Part shown: in pieces, positions 18,001 through 24,000 of the stretch
Layout: the number at the start of each line of letters is the position of its first letter
How positions within the stretch are numbered: the first letter of the stretch is position 1
DNA from: Candidatus Spyradenecus sp.
GTDB taxonomy: Bacteria > Verrucomicrobiota > Verrucomicrobiia > Opitutales > UBA953
Length of the DNA stretch: 64,000 nt
Direction: 5' to 3'
Assembly (NCBI GenBank): GCA_045535075.1
Contig: JAZSKX010000018.1
Location: forward strand, 32,001 to 96,000
Made by a program: the position numbers

Positions 18001-21000
18001 CCCGCTTAGAACGACGTCGCGCACCGTTCCCGCGATTTTTTCCGGGACTTCCTGTGCGAGAAAAGCGGCGTGAGAGCCGCGCGCAACGGCAACTTCGCCG
18101 GCATCCGGCTCAAGCGTTCCCGCGATAATTTTCAGCAGAGAACTTTTGCCCGCGCCGTTGCGCCCGATGAGGCAGACGCGCTCGCCCGCTTCGACTTGGA
18201 AGGTTACGTCGTCAAACAGCGACGGACCGCCGAATTTTAAGGAAAGATTTCTGACAGCAAGCAAAGCCATTTTTTTGAAAGATGAAAGTTTTAAGGCTTA
18301 AAGCTTAGAGAAACACCGCACAAGGCTCAAGGTTTGAGACTTCCCGCCGAAGGGAAAACGTTCTGTTGCCCTTTCAGGGCGAACGGTTTGTACGCGACAA
18401 CCCGAGGCGACATTCGCGATGCTCATTTTGCCTCGGGCTAAGTCTCCGAACGGCTTTCAGCCGAATTTAATTCACGGGAACGCGGCGCAACGGAACATTA
18501 TTAACTCCGATTGAACCAATTTTACTAGCTAACGCTACGCGGGAACGCGCGAATTTTTGTTTCCGGATTTAACCCGCGGGAATGCGGCACATTTCCGGCT
18601 GAAAGCCGAGCGGAATTTAGTCCGCGCGCGAGCCATTGTCCGCATGTGACGCAATCTTCGGCTGAAAGCCGGGCGGAATTCAGCCCAACGGCAAGTTCGC
18701 AACGCGAACGCCGCCTTGGGGACGAAACATCAAAAACGCCCACGCCCTGAAAGGGCAAAAGAAACAAGCGGCTAACGCTCTCGGGAAACGTTCTGTTGCC
18801 CTTTCAGGGCGAACGGTTTGTACGCAACAACCCGAGGCGACATTCGCGATGCTCATTTTGCCTCGGGCTAAGTCTCCGAACGGCTTTCAGCCGAATCTAA
18901 TTCACGGGAACACGGCGCAACGGAAGATTATTAACTCCGATTGGAGCAATTTTGCTCGCTAGCGCTACGCGAATTTTTGTTTCCGGATTTAACCCGCGGG
19001 AATGCAGCACGTTTCCGGCTGAAGGCCGGGCGGAATTCAGCCCAACGGCAAGTTCGCGGAGCGAACGCCGCCTTGGGTACGAAACATCAAAAACACCCGC
19101 GCCCTGAAAGGGCAAAAGAAACAAGCGCCCCGCATAAAAAACGTTCCCGCGAGGTAAACCCCACGGGAACGCGAATCTATGAATTAATATATCACAAATT
19201 TATTTGCGGCGACGGCGTGCACCAACGAGCGCCAACGCACCCAAGCCCGCAAGCAAACCAAACGCCGAAGGCTCAGGAACCGGCGTATACGGCGTATAGC
19301 TCAACGCAATATCCGAAACTGTAATACCAGCTCCGCCGCCTGCGTTTCCGTTACCGGTAGGATTTGCCGTCCAAACTGCAAAAATCTGAGAAGCCTCAAC
19401 GTTGTCCGTGTCGTAGGTTGCCGTAACAGTACCGGCAGTGCCTTGGTAAGTTAGCCCAATCAATTCCGTTGCCGTTTTTGAGAGCGTATCGTAGCTCCAA
19501 AGCGAATAGCCGAGCTTATTGGTATTCGAGAAGCTAAGCGTAATCGACTCTGCTTCTTCCGTCAGCTCTACGCCAAACGCAACATATTCACCACTGAGAG
19601 CCGGACGACATTTAAAAGAGAAGCTAGTAGAAGAGATAATACTTATATCAGCTCCATAAGCATTTGCATCATAAGCTTGTCCCGTACCGCCGAACCAACC
19701 GGTGAGATCCGTATTTCCCACATTCGAAGCCGTGATCGCCGCCGCAAGATTCTGAATAATTTCAGCACTTGCTCCCATGCCGATGCCGGAGGCATTGGAG
19801 CCGGCAATCCAAGTGAAGTCGTCTTGACCCGGAAGCGTAATCGGTTTTTCCTCCGCTGCATTCGCGAAGGCAATACCCGCCGCGAGCAACGTGGCAATAG
19901 AGATGTATTTTTTCATGTTTTTAGTGATTGAGGGTTTATTGAGTTCGGCAATTCTCGCGTTATTTAGAAGCGCGCGCAAGCAATTTTTTGAAAAATAATC
20001 CCCGAAATCCGTAAAACCGTGGCAAGTTGCGCATAAGACAGTGCGTTAAAAACGATTTTCAATGGAAATTTTATCGAGGCAAAAACTCCGTTCATCGCGA
20101 TAAAATACGGCTTCCCGACATGTTTAAATTTTCTCTTAGCCAAATGTCGGTTTTCACGGGAACGCAAAATACCGTGCCGCCCGACGAGATACGGAAGAGC
20201 TTTGTTCCCGCAGATATGCCTCTCGCAAACGAAGGCAAATTGACGGCTCTCATCCGAAAAATACTCGGATAAAACCTCTAAAAAGATTCCGACGCTTCTA
20301 AATGGCGCGTTCCCGCGAAAATTTCCGACGCTTCTAAATAACGCAAGAATCGCCAAACTCAATAAACCCTCAATCACTAAAAACATGAAAAAATACATCT
20401 CTATTGCCGCAATCCTTGCCGCGGGAACGGTTTTTGCGAATGCGGCGGCAACTGTCCTCACGTTCGACCAGACTGAGTATACATTTGATACCGACAAGTG
20501 GGCTCTTAACGGGCTGGGGAACGGTCCTGGTGCAGCCTGGTCCGGATCGGAAACTCTCGACGATGGAACCGTGGCGGGTCTTAGTATTACAGGCGGCAAA
20601 TTTTGGGATTATGCTACCGACACAGCATCGTGGACGAACACCGTAGCTCTGACGGATATGAATCAGAACTTGGGAACATCCATTACTGCAGACAATATTA
20701 CGGAAATTAAAATTGACGCTACCGCAGCACAAGGTAGCAAATCCACTCTCACCTTGGATTTCTCGAATAACACGGGAATCAACACAGCAGATGAAGTTAT
20801 TTTCTATCTCCTCGTAGCCACAAGCAAAGATGGGAATAATACTGCCATTTATAGCAATTTTACTGTAGCCGGTTTAACTGACGCTGTTATTTCATGGGCG
20901 ACTGCGGATGGAAGCGGCTACACGGATAATTCCGTTACCGCAGTTACCTTGCCGGTTAACAATTTGGGATTGATCAAAGTCGAAGGCACACTCGGAGCCG

Positions 21001-24000
21001 AAACAGTTACCTTTGCGGCGGATGCCGCGAAAAATGGCTGGGCGATGGTAGCGTACAACGCTATTCCTGAGCCTTCGGCGTTTGGTTTGCTTGCGGGCTT
21101 GGGTGCGTTGGCGCTCGTCGGTGCACGCCGTCGCCGCAAATAAATTTGTGATATATTAATTCATAGATTCGCGTTCCCGTGGGGTTTACCTCGCGGGAAC
21201 GTTTTTTATGCGGGGCTCGTCGGCGCGGAGGTTCTTTTGCCCTTTCAGTGCGCGGGTGTTTTTGATGTTTCGTACCCAAGGCGGCGTTCGCGTTGCGGAC
21301 TTGCCGTTGGGCTGAATTCCACCCGGCTTTCAGCCGAGGATTGCGTCACATGCGGACAATGGCTTGCGCGCGGACTAAATTCCGCTCGGCCGGCTAATGT
21401 TTGCCGATCCGGGAACGCGCCCTGACTTCCCGCTTGTAAATACGCTCAATAATAGCACCAAGTTCGTTAAGCGAACGCCCGTCGGTAAAAACGTTAATTC
21501 CGGAATCCATGTAGGCGCGTTCCCGTGCCGCCAAAAGCGTGCGAATGTGATCAAGCCGGTCGCCGTCGGTTTGAAGCAAAGGACGATTCTTCCCGGTTCC
21601 CGTACGCTTGAGGATGACTTCCGGAGAGGCAAAAAGTGCAACGACAACGCCGCGGGAACGCAATGTCGCCGCAATTCCGGGAATCGTTACAATCCCGCCG
21701 CCGGTCGAAATGACGGACTTCCCGTCGGGAAGCCACTCCGCAACGCATTGCCTTTCCAAGTCGCGAAATGCCGCTTCCCCGTCCGTCGCAAAAATCTCGG
21801 GAATTTCCCGTCCGGTTTTTTGCTGAATAATTTTGTCCGTGTCGCAAAAACGAAATCCCAACATATGCGCGAGCAAGCGCCCGAGCGTCGACTTTCCGGT
21901 TCCCATGAATCCGGTCAGAATCAAGTTCGGCGTGTTCGTGCTGGGAAAAGAGAGCGGCATCGCGGAAATAATTACTTATCGGCTTGTTCCGAGCAAAAAA
22001 ATTGCATCCGCTCGATGTATTTCGCGAGAATGTCAAATTCGAGGTTGACCGGTTCGCCGGACTTGCGTTCCCGCAAATTCGTCTCCTGCATCGTGTGAGG
22101 AATCAGCCAAATATCAAAGGTTTTGTCGACGTCGTTAAGCGCCGCAACCGTCAGCGAAATCCCGTCCACGGCAATGCTTCCTTTGTAAACCAGATATTTA
22201 CGGAAACTTTCCGGCGGGCGAATGCAGAGGCGGAAATTCGCGCCTTCCTGCCGTAGCGAAACGATCGTTCCCGTGGCGTCGACATGCCCCGTTACGAAAT
22301 GTCCGCCCAAGCGCGCGTCGGCACGGAGGCTGCGTTCAAGGTTAATCGCACTTCCCGGCTTGAGCAAAGAAAACGAAGTTTTTCGCAAGGTCTCATCCAA
22401 GAGATCAAATCCGAGTTGAGAGCCCGAGGCTTCGACAACCGTCAGGCAGCAGCCGTTGTTGGCAACACTGTCGCCGATTGCAAGCGTTCCCGCGAACGTC
22501 GGAGCGTCCACAACGAGGCGCCAAACATCATTCGCATTTTTCGTCAGGGAAACGACCGTTCCCGTGGTTTCGACTAATCCGGTGAACATAGGCAGTAAAT
22601 GTATCTCCGTGCTTTTCCCCTGTAAAACGCAAAAAATAACAAAGCACGTTTTGTAATCGAACTTCGCAACCCGTACAAACCAGGTATTTATGCTGTCGTA
22701 GGAGCGCGACGCAACGGAACGCTATCGGAACAATTTTGCTCGCACGTTCTGTTGCCCTTTCAGGGCGAACGGTTTGTGTGCGAAGACCCGAGGCGGCATT
22801 CGCGATGCTCATTTTGCCTCGGGCTAAGTCTCCGAACGGCTTTCAGCCGAATTTAATTCACGGGAACGCGGCATGTTTCCGGCTGAAGACTGTAAAAAAA
22901 GAAACGTTCCCGCGCACTTACGGGAACGTTTCTTTTGATTTATTAGGATTTACGCCTAGGAGGCATCTTTATTTTGCTGGCGGTTGCGATTGCCGTTTCC
23001 GCCGCGATAGCCGCTGTTGCGATTGCGGTTGAAATTTTTCTTTCCGCCGTGGCGTTGTCCGTGAAAATCCTTTTTTCCGTTCGGACGATCTCCGCGGAAT
23101 TTTCCGCCGCGCTTCTTCCCGTTTCGTTGTTTTTTCTTTTTCTTTCCGATTTTGAAAAACGCCAAAATGCGGGTTTTCAGTTTCTGCCAAAACGACGGTT
23201 CTTCTTCCTGGACGGGAATCGGAGCCGGCTCGATGATGAGCTTCGGGCGCGGAGTTCCCGCATTGGGTTGAACATGGTGGAAGTTCTTTTCGCGTTTTTC
23301 GCGAATACGCCATCCGGCGCCTTGGCGGATTTCTTCGATTTTTTCCGCAACGTTCTCCCCGGAAGGCAGGTTTTCGGAGTTCGATTCGGCGGGAGCATTT
23401 TCCCGGCGGGCGGATTCGCGCTCGTGACGGCGTTCCCGCGGTTTCGGACCGGTTCCGGAAAGCGTTTCCGTAAACTGTTCCGGATTTTCAATAATTCCGA
23501 CCGAGGGCGAGGCTGCGCCGGATTTTCCTTTTTTTGCGGAAGCGCCTCGGCGCAATCCGTGGCGACCGCCGTTTTTCTTTTCGGATTTTCCGTTGGCGTT
23601 TTTTTCAACTTCTCCGCCGATGGGGCTGAGCGGAAGGACATCGCTGAGCGAGGATTCGAGGGCGGATTCTGCGAGGGTGGCGTGCGGTTTGGGTTCGGGA
23701 GTTTCGGGTGCCTGCTCCGCGACATTTTCATTCGCAGGCACAACCGTCGAGACGTCCGGCGAAGCGGCGTTCTCTTCTGTGATATTATCAGGCATAGTTC
23801 TTTTTGGTTATATTATTTGTTGTGTTTGTCTTTGCTTACCGGATACGAATTCGACGAATGTAATTAAAGCGAAACTACGGCGGCGACACTAAGCGCGGCA
23901 CACTTCGCACAGCACAAGAACGTGCAATAAAAATCCGGCAGTTCAAAGAACGTAAAAAATGGAATCACCATTGAAAAGTAATTCCGACGCTCTGAAAAGT

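Follow-up and report, generated by a model that had tools for sequence, protein, structure and literature searches.

A candidate split-promoter toggle between two divergent PEP-CTERM genes of Candidatus Spyradenecus sp.

Genes and repeats at the locus

The window is a stretch of 64,000 nucleotides from Candidatus Spyradenecus sp., a bacterium of the sheep gut (contig JAZSKX010000018.1, positions 32,001 to 96,000), and coordinates are given relative to its first nucleotide. The locus consists of two divergent genes, A and B, which are separated by a 356-bp segment (S) and accompanied by two nested pairs of inverted repeats. Its features are as follows.

19016..19126, no strand: left REP-like flank, an inverted copy of 21232-21336 (105 nt, 93%)
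19127..19279, no strand: left arm of the outer inverted repeat, with the last 80 nt of gene A, its stop codon and the terminator
19141..19172, minus strand: terminator-like hairpin 3′ of gene A
19200..19916, minus strand: gene A, 238-aa PEP-CTERM protein with a CBM-like beta-sandwich middle
19853-19972 (core 19893-19972), no strand: left arm of the inner inverted repeat, with 15 nt of promoter spacer, -10-like hexamer, leader, start codon and signal-peptide start
19951..19956, minus strand: putative -10-like hexamer GAGAAT of gene A, 34 nt before the ATG, placed by positional alignment with paralogues
19973..20328 (356 bp), no strand: segment S between the inner arms, candidate invertible element, probably non-coding, unique in the genome
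19974..19979, minus strand: -35-like TTGCGC at the left end of S, placed by paralogue alignment, with an AT-rich tract upstream to 19999
20282-20317 and 20318-20353, plus strand: two 36-nt direct-repeat units, each with CGCTTCTAAAT; unit 2 extends into the right arm
20322..20327, plus strand: TTTCCG at the -35 position of gene B, no TTG
20329-20448 (core 20329-20408), no strand: right arm of the inner inverted repeat
20345..20350, plus strand: putative -10-like hexamer AAGAAT of gene B, placed by paralogue alignment
20385..21143, plus strand: gene B, 252-aa PEP-CTERM protein with a beta-rich middle of a rare family
21064..21216, no strand: right arm of the outer inverted repeat, with the last 80 nt of gene B, its stop codon and the terminator
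21171..21202, plus strand: terminator-like hairpin 3′ of gene B
21232..21390, no strand: right REP-like flank, found by repeat search

Both proteins match the PEP-CTERM profile PF07589 above its cut-off (E 5.6e-5 for A and 5.8e-5 for B), confirming the assignment made in the genome-wide survey's note. That note had also described the two proteins as alike at their ends and unlike in between, and we find the same: the BLASTP alignment of A with B is confined to the N-terminal region, the C-terminal tails are identical and the middle parts are unrelated. Gene A has 518 homologues at E<=1e-5, and its orthologues in four species of the genus, scored at 71-74% identity, are single genes. For the middle part of gene B there are 11 homologues, and this family does not occur in the other genomes of the window's family (0/136). 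In the nearest homologues of A and B elsewhere the signal peptides and tails differ. The genome encodes an exosortase (PF09721 at C1:131029-131976, E 1.8e-34, above cut-off); a match to TIGR02602 falls below the profile's own cut-off.

A repeat search of the locus gives inner arms of 120 nt with 87% identity. Their core is the 80-nt inverted repeat of 96% identity around a 356-nt loop that had been reported before: 77 of the 80 positions are identical, the mismatches lie at 20345/19956, 20351/19950 and 20355/19946, and the longest exact stretch comprises 53 nt (20356-20408). As described earlier, each core arm is made up of the first 24 nt of one gene and the 56 nt upstream of it. Across the 1.95-Mb genome no more than 13 inverted pairs with arms of 40 nt or longer lie within 6 kb of each other, and the inner repeat is therefore far beyond chance. 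Its length had been called unusual, yet the arms are long because genes A and B have the leader and the signal-peptide start in common, which likewise accounts for the repeat at the related locus L017 described below. Segment S has no Rfam match above threshold and was found in none of the 18 other species of the genus that were searched; the note, too, had stated that the locus is not kept in the other species. The small open reading frame reported inside S is present at 20027-20272; by position arithmetic the substitutions between strains fall mostly on codon positions 1 and 2, and we therefore consider the frame probably not coding.

The outer inverted repeat is not mentioned in the visible part of the note. 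Its 153-nt arms are identical at 152 positions, the lone mismatch being 19224/21119. The family of the REP-like flanks also occurs on contigs C1 and C8 of the genome.

The inner arms are 96% identical and the outer arms 99%, as against 82% (over 62 nt) and 79-86%, respectively, for the most similar other paralogue. A difference of this size would require that these two copies alone have exchanged sequence recently or still do so. The high identity of the arms, the unrelated middles and the differing ends in the closest homologues are probably signs of recombination between the arms.

Putative promoter parts

We aligned the upstream regions of 12 MKK[YH] genes, namely A, B and ten paralogues. 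Eight of the ten other paralogues share the consensus TTGAC[AG], a spacer with a run of 7-10 G, and TA[AG]AAT. A genome-wide scan for this paralogue promoter yielded 11 occurrences; where an ATG follows within 80 nt (n=10) the -10 ends 33-38 nt before it, and where the G run is present the spacer measures 14-18 nt. Gene A aligns as TTGCGC-17-GAGAAT and gene B as TTTCCG-17-AAGAAT, both 34 nt before the ATG. Neither has a G run in the spacer; instead the edge of the repeat is located there. The inner repeat begins within the promoter spacer, the -35 position being just inside S and a -10-like hexamer in each arm. The survey had found no promoter at the locus, and this stands for a strict sigma-70 consensus scan but not beyond it, since the alignment with the paralogues places -35-like and -10-like hexamers which may act as a promoter.

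Counted against the raw consensus, the -35 hexamers of A and B score 3/6 each and the -10 hexamers 4/6 each. A TTG -35 together with an AT-rich upstream tract is present only at the A-side end of S (17 of the 20 nt upstream of the -35 are A or T on the A side, 8 of 20 on the B side), and for this reason we read the assembly as A-ON. The A-side end of S (TTTTTCAAAAAATTGCTTGCGC) matches the upstream region of the gene A orthologue in a relative within the genus, G016 (TTTTTCAAAAAGTGCTTGACA), in which the -35 is TTGACA.

The same design in another genome

Two loci were found with a profile of the gene B family, and in each of them two divergent genes are separated by nested inverted repeats. In locus L017 of the 'Akkermansia sp.' MAG G161, a distant genome outside the window's family, a homologue of gene B (54% identity) is paired with another PEP-CTERM gene which is unrelated to gene A. 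On its right side TTGATA is followed by the 17-nt site CAGCATTCTAAATGCTG and TACACT, and its left side reads CATCTA-17-TACACT; the -35 scores 5/6 on one side and 1/6 on the other. The inner repeat has 27-nt arms with 124 nt between them, and an outer inverted repeat of 157 nt (94%) extends over both 3′ ends. CAGCATTCTAAATGCTG forms at least 10 inverted pairs in G161, nine at 133-147 nt start to start and the other at 263 nt, and it has 26 forward and 27 reverse matches compared with 2 and 0 for the reversed control. The site is present in none of the 137 genomes of the window's family.

The putative toggles L017 and L021 of G161 resemble the window locus in several respects: a -35 at one end of the inner segment and a -10 on both outer sides, a divergent pair with the repeat at the promoter spacer, and leaders and 5′ coding ends that together form an extended imperfect repeat. 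L017 shares in addition the outer repeat of about 155 nt over both 3′ ends and the core TTCTAAAT in the spacer. The window locus thus shows the G161-type layout of divergent paralogous genes with the -35 inside, the -10s outside and an outer 3′ repeat, but its spacer is not a dyad-symmetric 17-nt site. The perfect 17-nt dyad of G161 recurs there in at least 10 pairs, whereas the window genome has one locus with a non-dyad site and a 356-nt segment.

Putative recombination site and recombinases

The core TTCTAAAT has nearly the same place in both spacers, position 5 in the window locus and position 6 in G161. This 8-nt core is all that the spacer GCGCTTCTAAATAACGC and CAGCATTCTAAATGCTG have in common; the flanks of the core in the window are not inverted half-sites and form no dyad. 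All three copies of the 11-mer CGCTTCTAAAT in the genome lie in this locus, and its degenerate pattern is no commoner than the reversed control in 19 genomes of the genus. CGCTTCTAAAT is accordingly not a motif common to several loci of the genome, as would be usual for master-invertase families.

The survey had seen no recombinase gene beside the locus, and we also find none among the ORFs of at least 40 aa in 17000-24000. The genome has four Phage_integrase matches (tyrosine recombinases), all outside the 64-kb window. Two orphan tyrosine recombinases lie on C15, between rsmI and aspS, and on C14, and the family of orphan tyrosine recombinases has 19 matches in the inverton-rich G161. No serine recombinase was found in the genome; recA is present.

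Contigs of related strains

Of 23 runs, all of them contigs, four public ones (X1, X2, X3 and X20) were aligned with the locus; these are k=31 contigs, not reads. The opposite-strand joints in X1 and X3 could be reproduced from these contigs. To say that S is seen in both orientations, as the survey did, is nevertheless too strong for contigs, given a second joint in X1, the position of the X3 joint on CGCTTCTAAAT and the result for X2 and X20, neither of which has an opposite-strand joint.

In X1 a 1186-nt contig of depth 8.61 contains an opposite-strand joint 19955/20345, at which 59 letters fit both sides, and thereby connects gene A with the opposite end of S; X1 is the only one of the four runs in which a contig leads from an arm into a gene. 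The same contig has a second opposite-strand joint, 19225/21119, by which gene A continues at its 3′ end into an outer arm and flank of the right type, and is therefore not a simple 356-bp flip. Its order is right end of S, arm, gene A and right-type outer arm; the right type is recognized by the base at 21119 and, in the flank, by the indel at 21217-21231. The contig stops 45 nt past the outer arm inside the REP element. Among the mapped X1 contigs none covers the left end of S, and none the 5′ end of gene B. The bridging contig may therefore reflect another fixed arrangement, or a join that was made because low-depth branches had been lost at this point. The contigs of gene B have a depth of 3.6-4.1 as opposed to 8.61 for the gene A contig, which suggests strains differing in content. 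Should gene A indeed be permanently placed behind the right end of S in the X1 strain, a functional promoter may be present at that end as well.

The X3 joint, 19973/20293, is found on a 143-nt contig with a short side of 54 letters, and 11 letters fit both sides. It sits on the 11-mer CGCTTCTAAAT, of which the locus has three copies, maps to direct-repeat unit 1 and has other explanations. In X3 the depth over the left 90 nt of S is roughly threefold that of the remainder, these 90 nt occur in two other contexts, and the contigs lack the middle of gene B.

Proposed switch and alternative explanations

We consider it about an even chance (roughly 0.5) that the locus is a split-promoter toggle between two PEP-CTERM genes with S as the candidate for inversion. 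This reading builds on what the sequence shows, namely the two repeat pairs, the families to which the genes belong, promoter parts that are homologous by position, and a second genome with the same design. Each gene would keep its own -10-like hexamer, leader and start within its repeat arm, and the sole good -35 (TTG) with the AT-rich tract would be situated at one end of S, adjoining the arm. As assembled, this half-promoter would face gene A (A ON, B OFF). Inversion of S would pass it to gene B, so that a cell would carry on its surface only one at a time of the two small exosortase-sorted beta-sandwich proteins. The exchange could be catalyzed by a trans-acting tyrosine recombinase that uses the spacer site with the TTCTAAAT core, or could be due to RecA acting on the 53-nt identical stretch. 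The earlier proposal of a DNA inversion switch aiming one promoter is partly supported, in that the anatomy fits and the design of L017 is alike; the action of the hexamers as a promoter, the inversion of S in this species and the enzyme at work are inferred.

Possible, though on balance doubtful, is a static locus that no longer switches at a useful rate, whether it arose when one PEP-CTERM gene unit was duplicated in inverted orientation or from an inverton that has decayed. Its ends would be kept alike by gene conversion among paralogues, the strain differences would be fixed and the 'flipped' contigs would be variants or graph mis-joins. Conserved ends with unrelated middles are indeed typical of the entire paralogue family, but the arms reach 96-99% identity and any other paralogue pair at most 86%. 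The site-like sequence is unique to the locus and not dyad-symmetric, the neighborhood lacks a recombinase and the other 18 species of the genus lack the locus, all as expected for a static arrangement; a random duplication, however, would not be expected to place the repeat edge exactly in the promoter spacer, as is found in the multi-copy invertons of G161. Among the contigs, X1 covers one arm context with gene B at half the depth of gene A, and X3 combines the threefold depth of the left end of S in other contexts with the missing middle of gene B, which would suit fixed variants; still, two strains of one species differ in their contigs in the end of S that faces gene A.

We regard it as improbable that homologous recombination inverts nested segments or exchanges cassettes here, on the pattern of Campylobacter fetus sap and without a dedicated invertase. 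Crossing over within the inner arms, with their exact stretch of 53 nt, and within the outer arms (152/153) would then move the genes past a chromosomally fixed promoter. The X1 contig, in which the right end of S is paired with gene A and a right-type outer arm, would agree with this, as right-type markers beyond gene A need crossovers in both repeat pairs relative to the assembly; but it is a single contig that ends within the REP element, and the markers could be common to both arms in that strain. The genome has recA, the outer repeat recurs in L017 and no invertase is nearby. On the other hand, a perfect identity of 53 nt would generally be short for frequent RecA exchange.

Very unlikely, finally, is constant transcription of both genes from promoters in the arms or from other signals in S, which would then be a shared regulatory spacer: the like -10 hexamer and leader in both arms and the tie of the -35 candidates against the consensus would permit it, but the asymmetry in the TTG and the AT-rich upstream tract is strong, and in the homologous design of L017 the two -35 scores are unequal (5/6 and 1/6).

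Comparison with known systems

The split-promoter toggle proposed here can be compared with known switches. Homopolymer tracts in promoters cause phase variation of the Neisseria and Haemophilus type. The G runs of 7-10 in the spacers of the paralogues (11 promoters) are similar to these, whereas genes A and B are without such a run.

In C. fetus, nested inversion of surface-protein genes reportedly takes place at sap, where the conserved 5′ regions are hundreds of bp long and several cassettes encode S-layer proteins. At sap as in the window locus, homologous surface-protein genes whose 5′ ends are conserved point in opposite directions on either side of a segment that bears a promoter (in the window, a putative one), no invertase is known to lie alongside and more than one nested inversion would be possible. 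The window locus differs in its conserved 5′ parts of 80-120 nt, in having two genes and in a cargo of PEP-CTERM instead of S-layer proteins.

Invertons of Akkermansia muciniphila are already published. In PMC11892184 invertons of group 138 are enriched near genes with a PEP-CTERM sorting domain, the inverton motif is credited to Jiang et al. 2019 and one inverton repeat has 17 nt; PMC13343947 describes a flipping cps1 inverton seen by reads and PCR and quotes the repeat motif as CGGATT..AATCCG. The claim of a first inverton in Verrucomicrobiota is therefore not supported (PMC11892184, PMC13343947), nor is that of a new phase variation of exosortase cargo (PMC11892184). The A. muciniphila invertons share with the window locus their occurrence in a verrucomicrobial gut bacterium and a short repeat-bounded intergenic segment by surface-protein genes. 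Flipping has been seen there, while S is a candidate. Compared with the 17-nt repeat the arms in the window measure 80-120 nt and have another sequence, its site does not belong to a multi-locus family, and the locus possesses a second, outer repeat pair.

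A nested palindrome around two PEP-CTERM genes

Genes A and B lie in divergent orientation on contig C5 (the window being C5 32001-96000) of a genome of 1.95 Mb in 18 contigs with a completeness score of 99.45%. The following features make up the locus.

19200-19916, minus strand: gene A, 238 aa, PEP-CTERM domain (PF07589) above cut-off
20385-21143, plus strand: gene B, 252 aa, PEP-CTERM domain (PF07589) above cut-off
19853-19972 and 20329-20448: inner inverted repeat, 120 nt, 87% identity
19973-20328: segment S, 356 nt, unique, bounded by the inner repeat
19127-19279 and 21064-21216: outer inverted repeat, 153 nt, a single mismatch

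The core of the inner repeat is identical at 77 of 80 positions and includes an exact stretch of 53 nt (20356-20408). Each outer arm takes in the final 80 nt of a gene together with its stop codon and a terminator-like hairpin, and past an indel the outer repeat runs on into REP-like repeats which are also found on contigs C1 and C8. The whole locus forms a nested palindrome. In the entire genome just 13 inverted pairs within 6 kb reach a length of 40 nt or more, and the repeats around A and B are not a chance occurrence. A Rfam search of 18200-21800 gave nothing near threshold, and the 81-aa and 211-aa open reading frames across S have no match in Pfam.

The locus is bordered on both sides, at 18353-19127 and 21232-21390, by arrays of hairpin repeats of the REP-like kind. 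In three related genomes (loci L011, L012, and L013) the orthologue of gene A is found just downstream of an ABC-F gene and in the same direction; here gene A sits upstream of the start of the ABC-F gene (window 16372-18270 compared with these three loci). The neighborhood of gene A has undergone rearrangement in this species.

Two further inverted repeats were set aside. The 914-nt repeat C5:18817/21590 consists of two paralogous DegT aminotransferase genes, and the repeat C5:264836/265462, considered as a second toggle, was ruled out: the genes on its two sides converge on it, and it contains a 3′ fragment of a PEP-CTERM gene. This fragment (C5:265200-265330, outside the window) has no gene body, is embedded in REP-like repeats and has convergent genes on either side.

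A putative promoter split between the segment and the repeat arms

We aligned the upstream regions of 12 genes whose products start with MKK[YH], A and B among them, and obtained the following promoter assignment, which we infer from homology.

Gene A: -35 TTGCGC, 17-nt spacer GCGCTTCTAAATAACGC, -10 GAGAAT; 17 of the 20 nt upstream are A/T
Gene B: -35 TTTCCG, 17-nt spacer ACGCTTCTAAATAACGC, -10 AAGAAT; 8 of the 20 nt upstream are A/T

The -10 element of either gene ends 34 nt ahead of the ATG. The inverted repeat starts within the spacer, and consequently the -10 element is duplicated in both arms and the -35 position is part of S. At its A-side end S is homologous to the stretch that precedes the gene A orthologue in the related genome G016, where the hexamer reads TTGACA. 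When matches to the consensus are simply counted, the two -35 hexamers each score 3 of 6, and a strict promoter scan of the locus returned no promoter. Upstream of the G016 orthologue (locus L010) a long T run precedes TTGACA and a shorter T run lies inside the spacer; this promoter may be another homopolymer switch.

The spacers of A and B are without a G run. Eight of the other ten upstream regions in the alignment contain TTGAC[AG] followed by TA[AG]AAT, and the spacer between the two closes with 7-10 consecutive G. Scanning the genome for TTGAC[AG], 7-8 nt, 7-10 G, and TA[AG]AAT yielded 11 promoters with spacers of 14-18 nt, eight of which precede small MKK[YH] PEP-CTERM genes; in the ten that have an ATG within 80 nt the -10 element ends 33-38 nt before it. 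The pattern occurs in 7 of the 19 genomes of the genus and the reversed control gave 0 matches. This looks like slipped-strand phase variation of the protein family to which A and B belong. One of the sites is inside the window (32601-32628, minus strand, ahead of a PEP-CTERM gene at 31942-32565) and ten more are elsewhere in the genome.

Shared ends and unrelated middles

A BLASTP comparison of the two proteins aligns just the N-terminal region, in agreement with the profile comparison, and the C-terminal tails are identical. Gene A is predicted to encode a beta-sandwich (mean pLDDT 85.6) with numerous but weak hits among carbohydrate-binding modules (TM 0.3-0.57 on the target). Its family is large, with 518 proteins at E<=1e-5, and there are orthologues in four species of the genus, scored at 71-74% identity. 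The predicted fold of gene B (pLDDT 88.4) has just two matches at E<=0.001, and its middle part is rare, with 11 real homologues and none in 136 other genomes of the family. The orthologue of gene A in the related genome G002 (locus L012) has an A run after the ATG that is two bases shorter than in the relatives G013 and G001 and an in-frame TGA in the match; it could be either a frameshifted gene or a case of translational phase variation.

The nearest homologues of A and of B elsewhere carry another signal peptide and another tail. Within this genome the tail is common to about 45 PEP-CTERM reading frames and the MKK[YH]I signal peptide to about a dozen. The ends thus undergo concerted evolution within a lineage, and the middles are old and distinct. 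A and B are the extreme case: their ends are 96% and 99% identical, and no other paralogue exceeds 82% and 86%. Contig C1 carries a gene for an exosortase (PF09721, E 1.8e-34).

Rearranged forms in metagenome contigs

Evidence on flipping came only from Logan contigs (k=31) of four public runs from four studies (X1, X2, X3, and X20), compared at 90% likeness; holes in the contig cover were not taken as evidence. The genome-wide survey's note had claimed that S is found flipped in such contigs. In X1 one contig of 1186 nt and depth 8.61 reads 20032-20345 (plus), 19955-19225 (minus), and 21119-21261 (plus), that is, the right end of S, an arm, gene A, an outer arm of the right type (right-type base 21119), and the indel of the right flank. 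Gene A is therefore joined to the end of S opposite to that in the assembly. A single flip of S leaves the second joint of the contig unexplained. The contig needs either crossovers in both repeat pairs (a nested inversion), an exchange in which A has taken the place of B, or a strain with two outer arms of the right type. The bin depths in X1 are arithmetically the contribution of this contig alone, and neither the left end of S nor the 5′ end of gene B is covered by another compared contig; pieces of gene B have depths of 3.6-4.1. A mixture of strains or the loss of branches at low depth is a possible cause of the pattern.

The joint in X3, 19973/20293 (short side 54), is ambiguous. It falls on CGCTTCTAAAT, of which the left arm has one copy and each of the two 36-nt units at the right end of S another, and it fits an inversion via unit 1 and equally a left arm with an extra unit. 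In the same run the left 90 nt of S (19972-20061) have a depth of about 36-41 vs about 12 for the other parts of S and gene A. These 90 nt also have two other contexts, in one of which they immediately follow a terminator, REP sequence, and 29 other letters; the half-promoter module may be present in other strains or at further loci. The X3 contigs lack the middle of gene B. X2 and X20 showed no joint at the arms; their contigs break off at the edges of the arms, which k=31 would lead one to expect, and are uninformative. A 30-letter loose end beside S in X20 matches nothing in our genome at up to 3 mismatches. Searching JGI metagenome contigs with the reading frame inside S gave 337 pattern matches with 0 confirmed, and the 38-nt arm pattern gave 0 matches.

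We favor a working half-promoter toggle, by whichever mechanism of exchange, with a probability of about 0.5. A static or decayed locus with rearrangements at the level of strains is the most serious competitor and a real, if lesser, possibility: a strain mixture would suit the X1 depths, and the position of the repeat edge in the promoter spacer speaks against it. We consider it rather unlikely that nested inversion or cassette exchange driven by recombination accounts for the locus; it would explain the second joint in X1, as would a strain with two right-type outer arms. That both genes are always on we regard as very improbable; the equal consensus scores of the two hexamers would allow it, and the A/T content upstream differs strongly between the two sides.

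Candidate enzymes

As the survey's note had stated, no invertase gene was found next to the locus: the open reading frames listed for 17000-24000 include no recombinase, and all four tyrosine recombinases of the genome are outside the 64-kb window. The genome lacks a serine recombinase. Two of the tyrosine recombinases, with strong Phage_integrase scores of 174 and 156 bits, are taken for putative Xer-type enzymes. The other two are orphans and 45% identical to each other.

L007 2851-3903 (contig C14): orphan tyrosine recombinase inside a polysaccharide-synthesis locus
L008 2572-3762 (contig C15): orphan tyrosine recombinase between rsmI and aspS

The orphan family has 19 matches in the inverton-rich genome G161, a distant MAG labeled 'Akkermansia sp.', and 5 in G162, and its two members here are candidate trans-acting invertases. 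As recA is also present, inversion by a recombinase and by homologous exchange are both possible. Contig C14 further carries an IS200-like Y1 transposase gene (PF01797, E 1.3e-21) between inverted hairpin-rich repeats (L007 2009-2097 and 2621-2708), a layout which we take to be that of REP-associated tyrosine transposases.

Two possible switches in one protein family

In a broader and, taken as a whole, doubtful scheme, a single family of small surface proteins sorted by exosortase would be subject to two different stochastic switches in one genome. About eight members would vary by slippage of the G run in the promoter spacer. The A/B toggle would descend from a site-specific split-promoter inverton whose dyad site and sister loci were lost, and would now run on homologous recombination between the long arms. 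Inner and outer inversions would be nested, and unit 1 would act as a decoy site leading to a third state with both genes OFF.

If S flips, this commensal could alternate two unrelated surface proteins resembling carbohydrate-binding modules with one half-promoter, invertons of the Akkermansia kind would extend to a small-genome lineage of the sheep gut, and the locus would be a natural case for asking whether switches persist on homologous recombination after their dedicated site family is lost. The toggle and the G-run promoters of the paralogues would then jointly make the PEP-CTERM family in question a contingency set by which the cell surface varies.

Comparison with known invertons

The half-promoter design is clean and recurrent, but its kind is known, and its switching in this species is putative. 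Invertons of A. muciniphila are reported in PMC11892184, including a group of 39 (32 from that strain) enriched near genes with PEP-CTERM sorting domains, and a motif is credited there to Jiang et al. 2019. PMC13343947 describes many invertons in Verrucomicrobiota and the flipping of one upstream of cps1, the motif being quoted as CGGATT..AATCCG. The expectations that this would be the first inverton in Verrucomicrobiota and that phase variation of PEP-CTERM cargo would be new are both contradicted by these publications, and no new field is opened, as invertons near PEP-CTERM genes are already in print. Homopolymer phase variation in A. muciniphila had likewise been raised earlier, in PMC3048395. 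We rejected the motif CGGATT..AATCCG as the boundary of S, which contains one CGGATT and no inverted partner in a matching context.

Three things may be new: that a split promoter serves two PEP-CTERM genes in an either/or fashion, that long arms are combined with a second, outer repeat pair, and that such a locus occurs in a sheep-gut lineage which has a small genome and no multi-copy family of sites. No account of a toggle of this split-promoter type with a PEP-CTERM gene on each side turned up in the literature searched; Jiang et al. 2019 or supplements may hold one.

A profile search of genome contigs with the B family led to two loci, both in MAGs labeled 'Akkermansia sp.', and in both the B homologue and its neighbor are divergent, the space between them being occupied by nested inverted repeats. 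The compact either/or design recurs in distant gut Verrucomicrobiota with other gene pairs. At the G161 locus L017 a 27-nt repeat (96%) encloses 124 nt, with TTGATA, CAGCATTCTAAATGCTG, and TACACT on the right side and CATCTA-17-TACACT on the left. The leaders and 5′ coding ends contain additional imperfect repeats, and an outer repeat of 157 nt (94%) covers both 3′ ends. The partner gene is not homologous to gene A, so the pairing of A and B is not ancient.

G161 (loci L017-L026) has at least 10 inverted pairs of a 17-nt dyad, CAGCATTCTAAAT[GA]CTG, nine of them 133-147 nt apart and the other 263; the dyad has 26 forward and 27 reverse matches vs 2 and 0 for the control. Several pairs have a -35 element (CTTGNTA) at just one inner end, and the pair at L021 sits between two divergent paralogues starting with MKKIYTCTP. 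These pairs make up a genome-wide family of half-promoter invertons. G161 is outside the family of the present genome, and the 17-nt site is found in none of 137 genomes of that family. The spacer studied here and the G161 site have an 8-nt core, TTCTAAAT, in common at almost the same position, whereas the dyad flanks are absent from our locus. We read the locus as a relative of the G161 half-promoter class.
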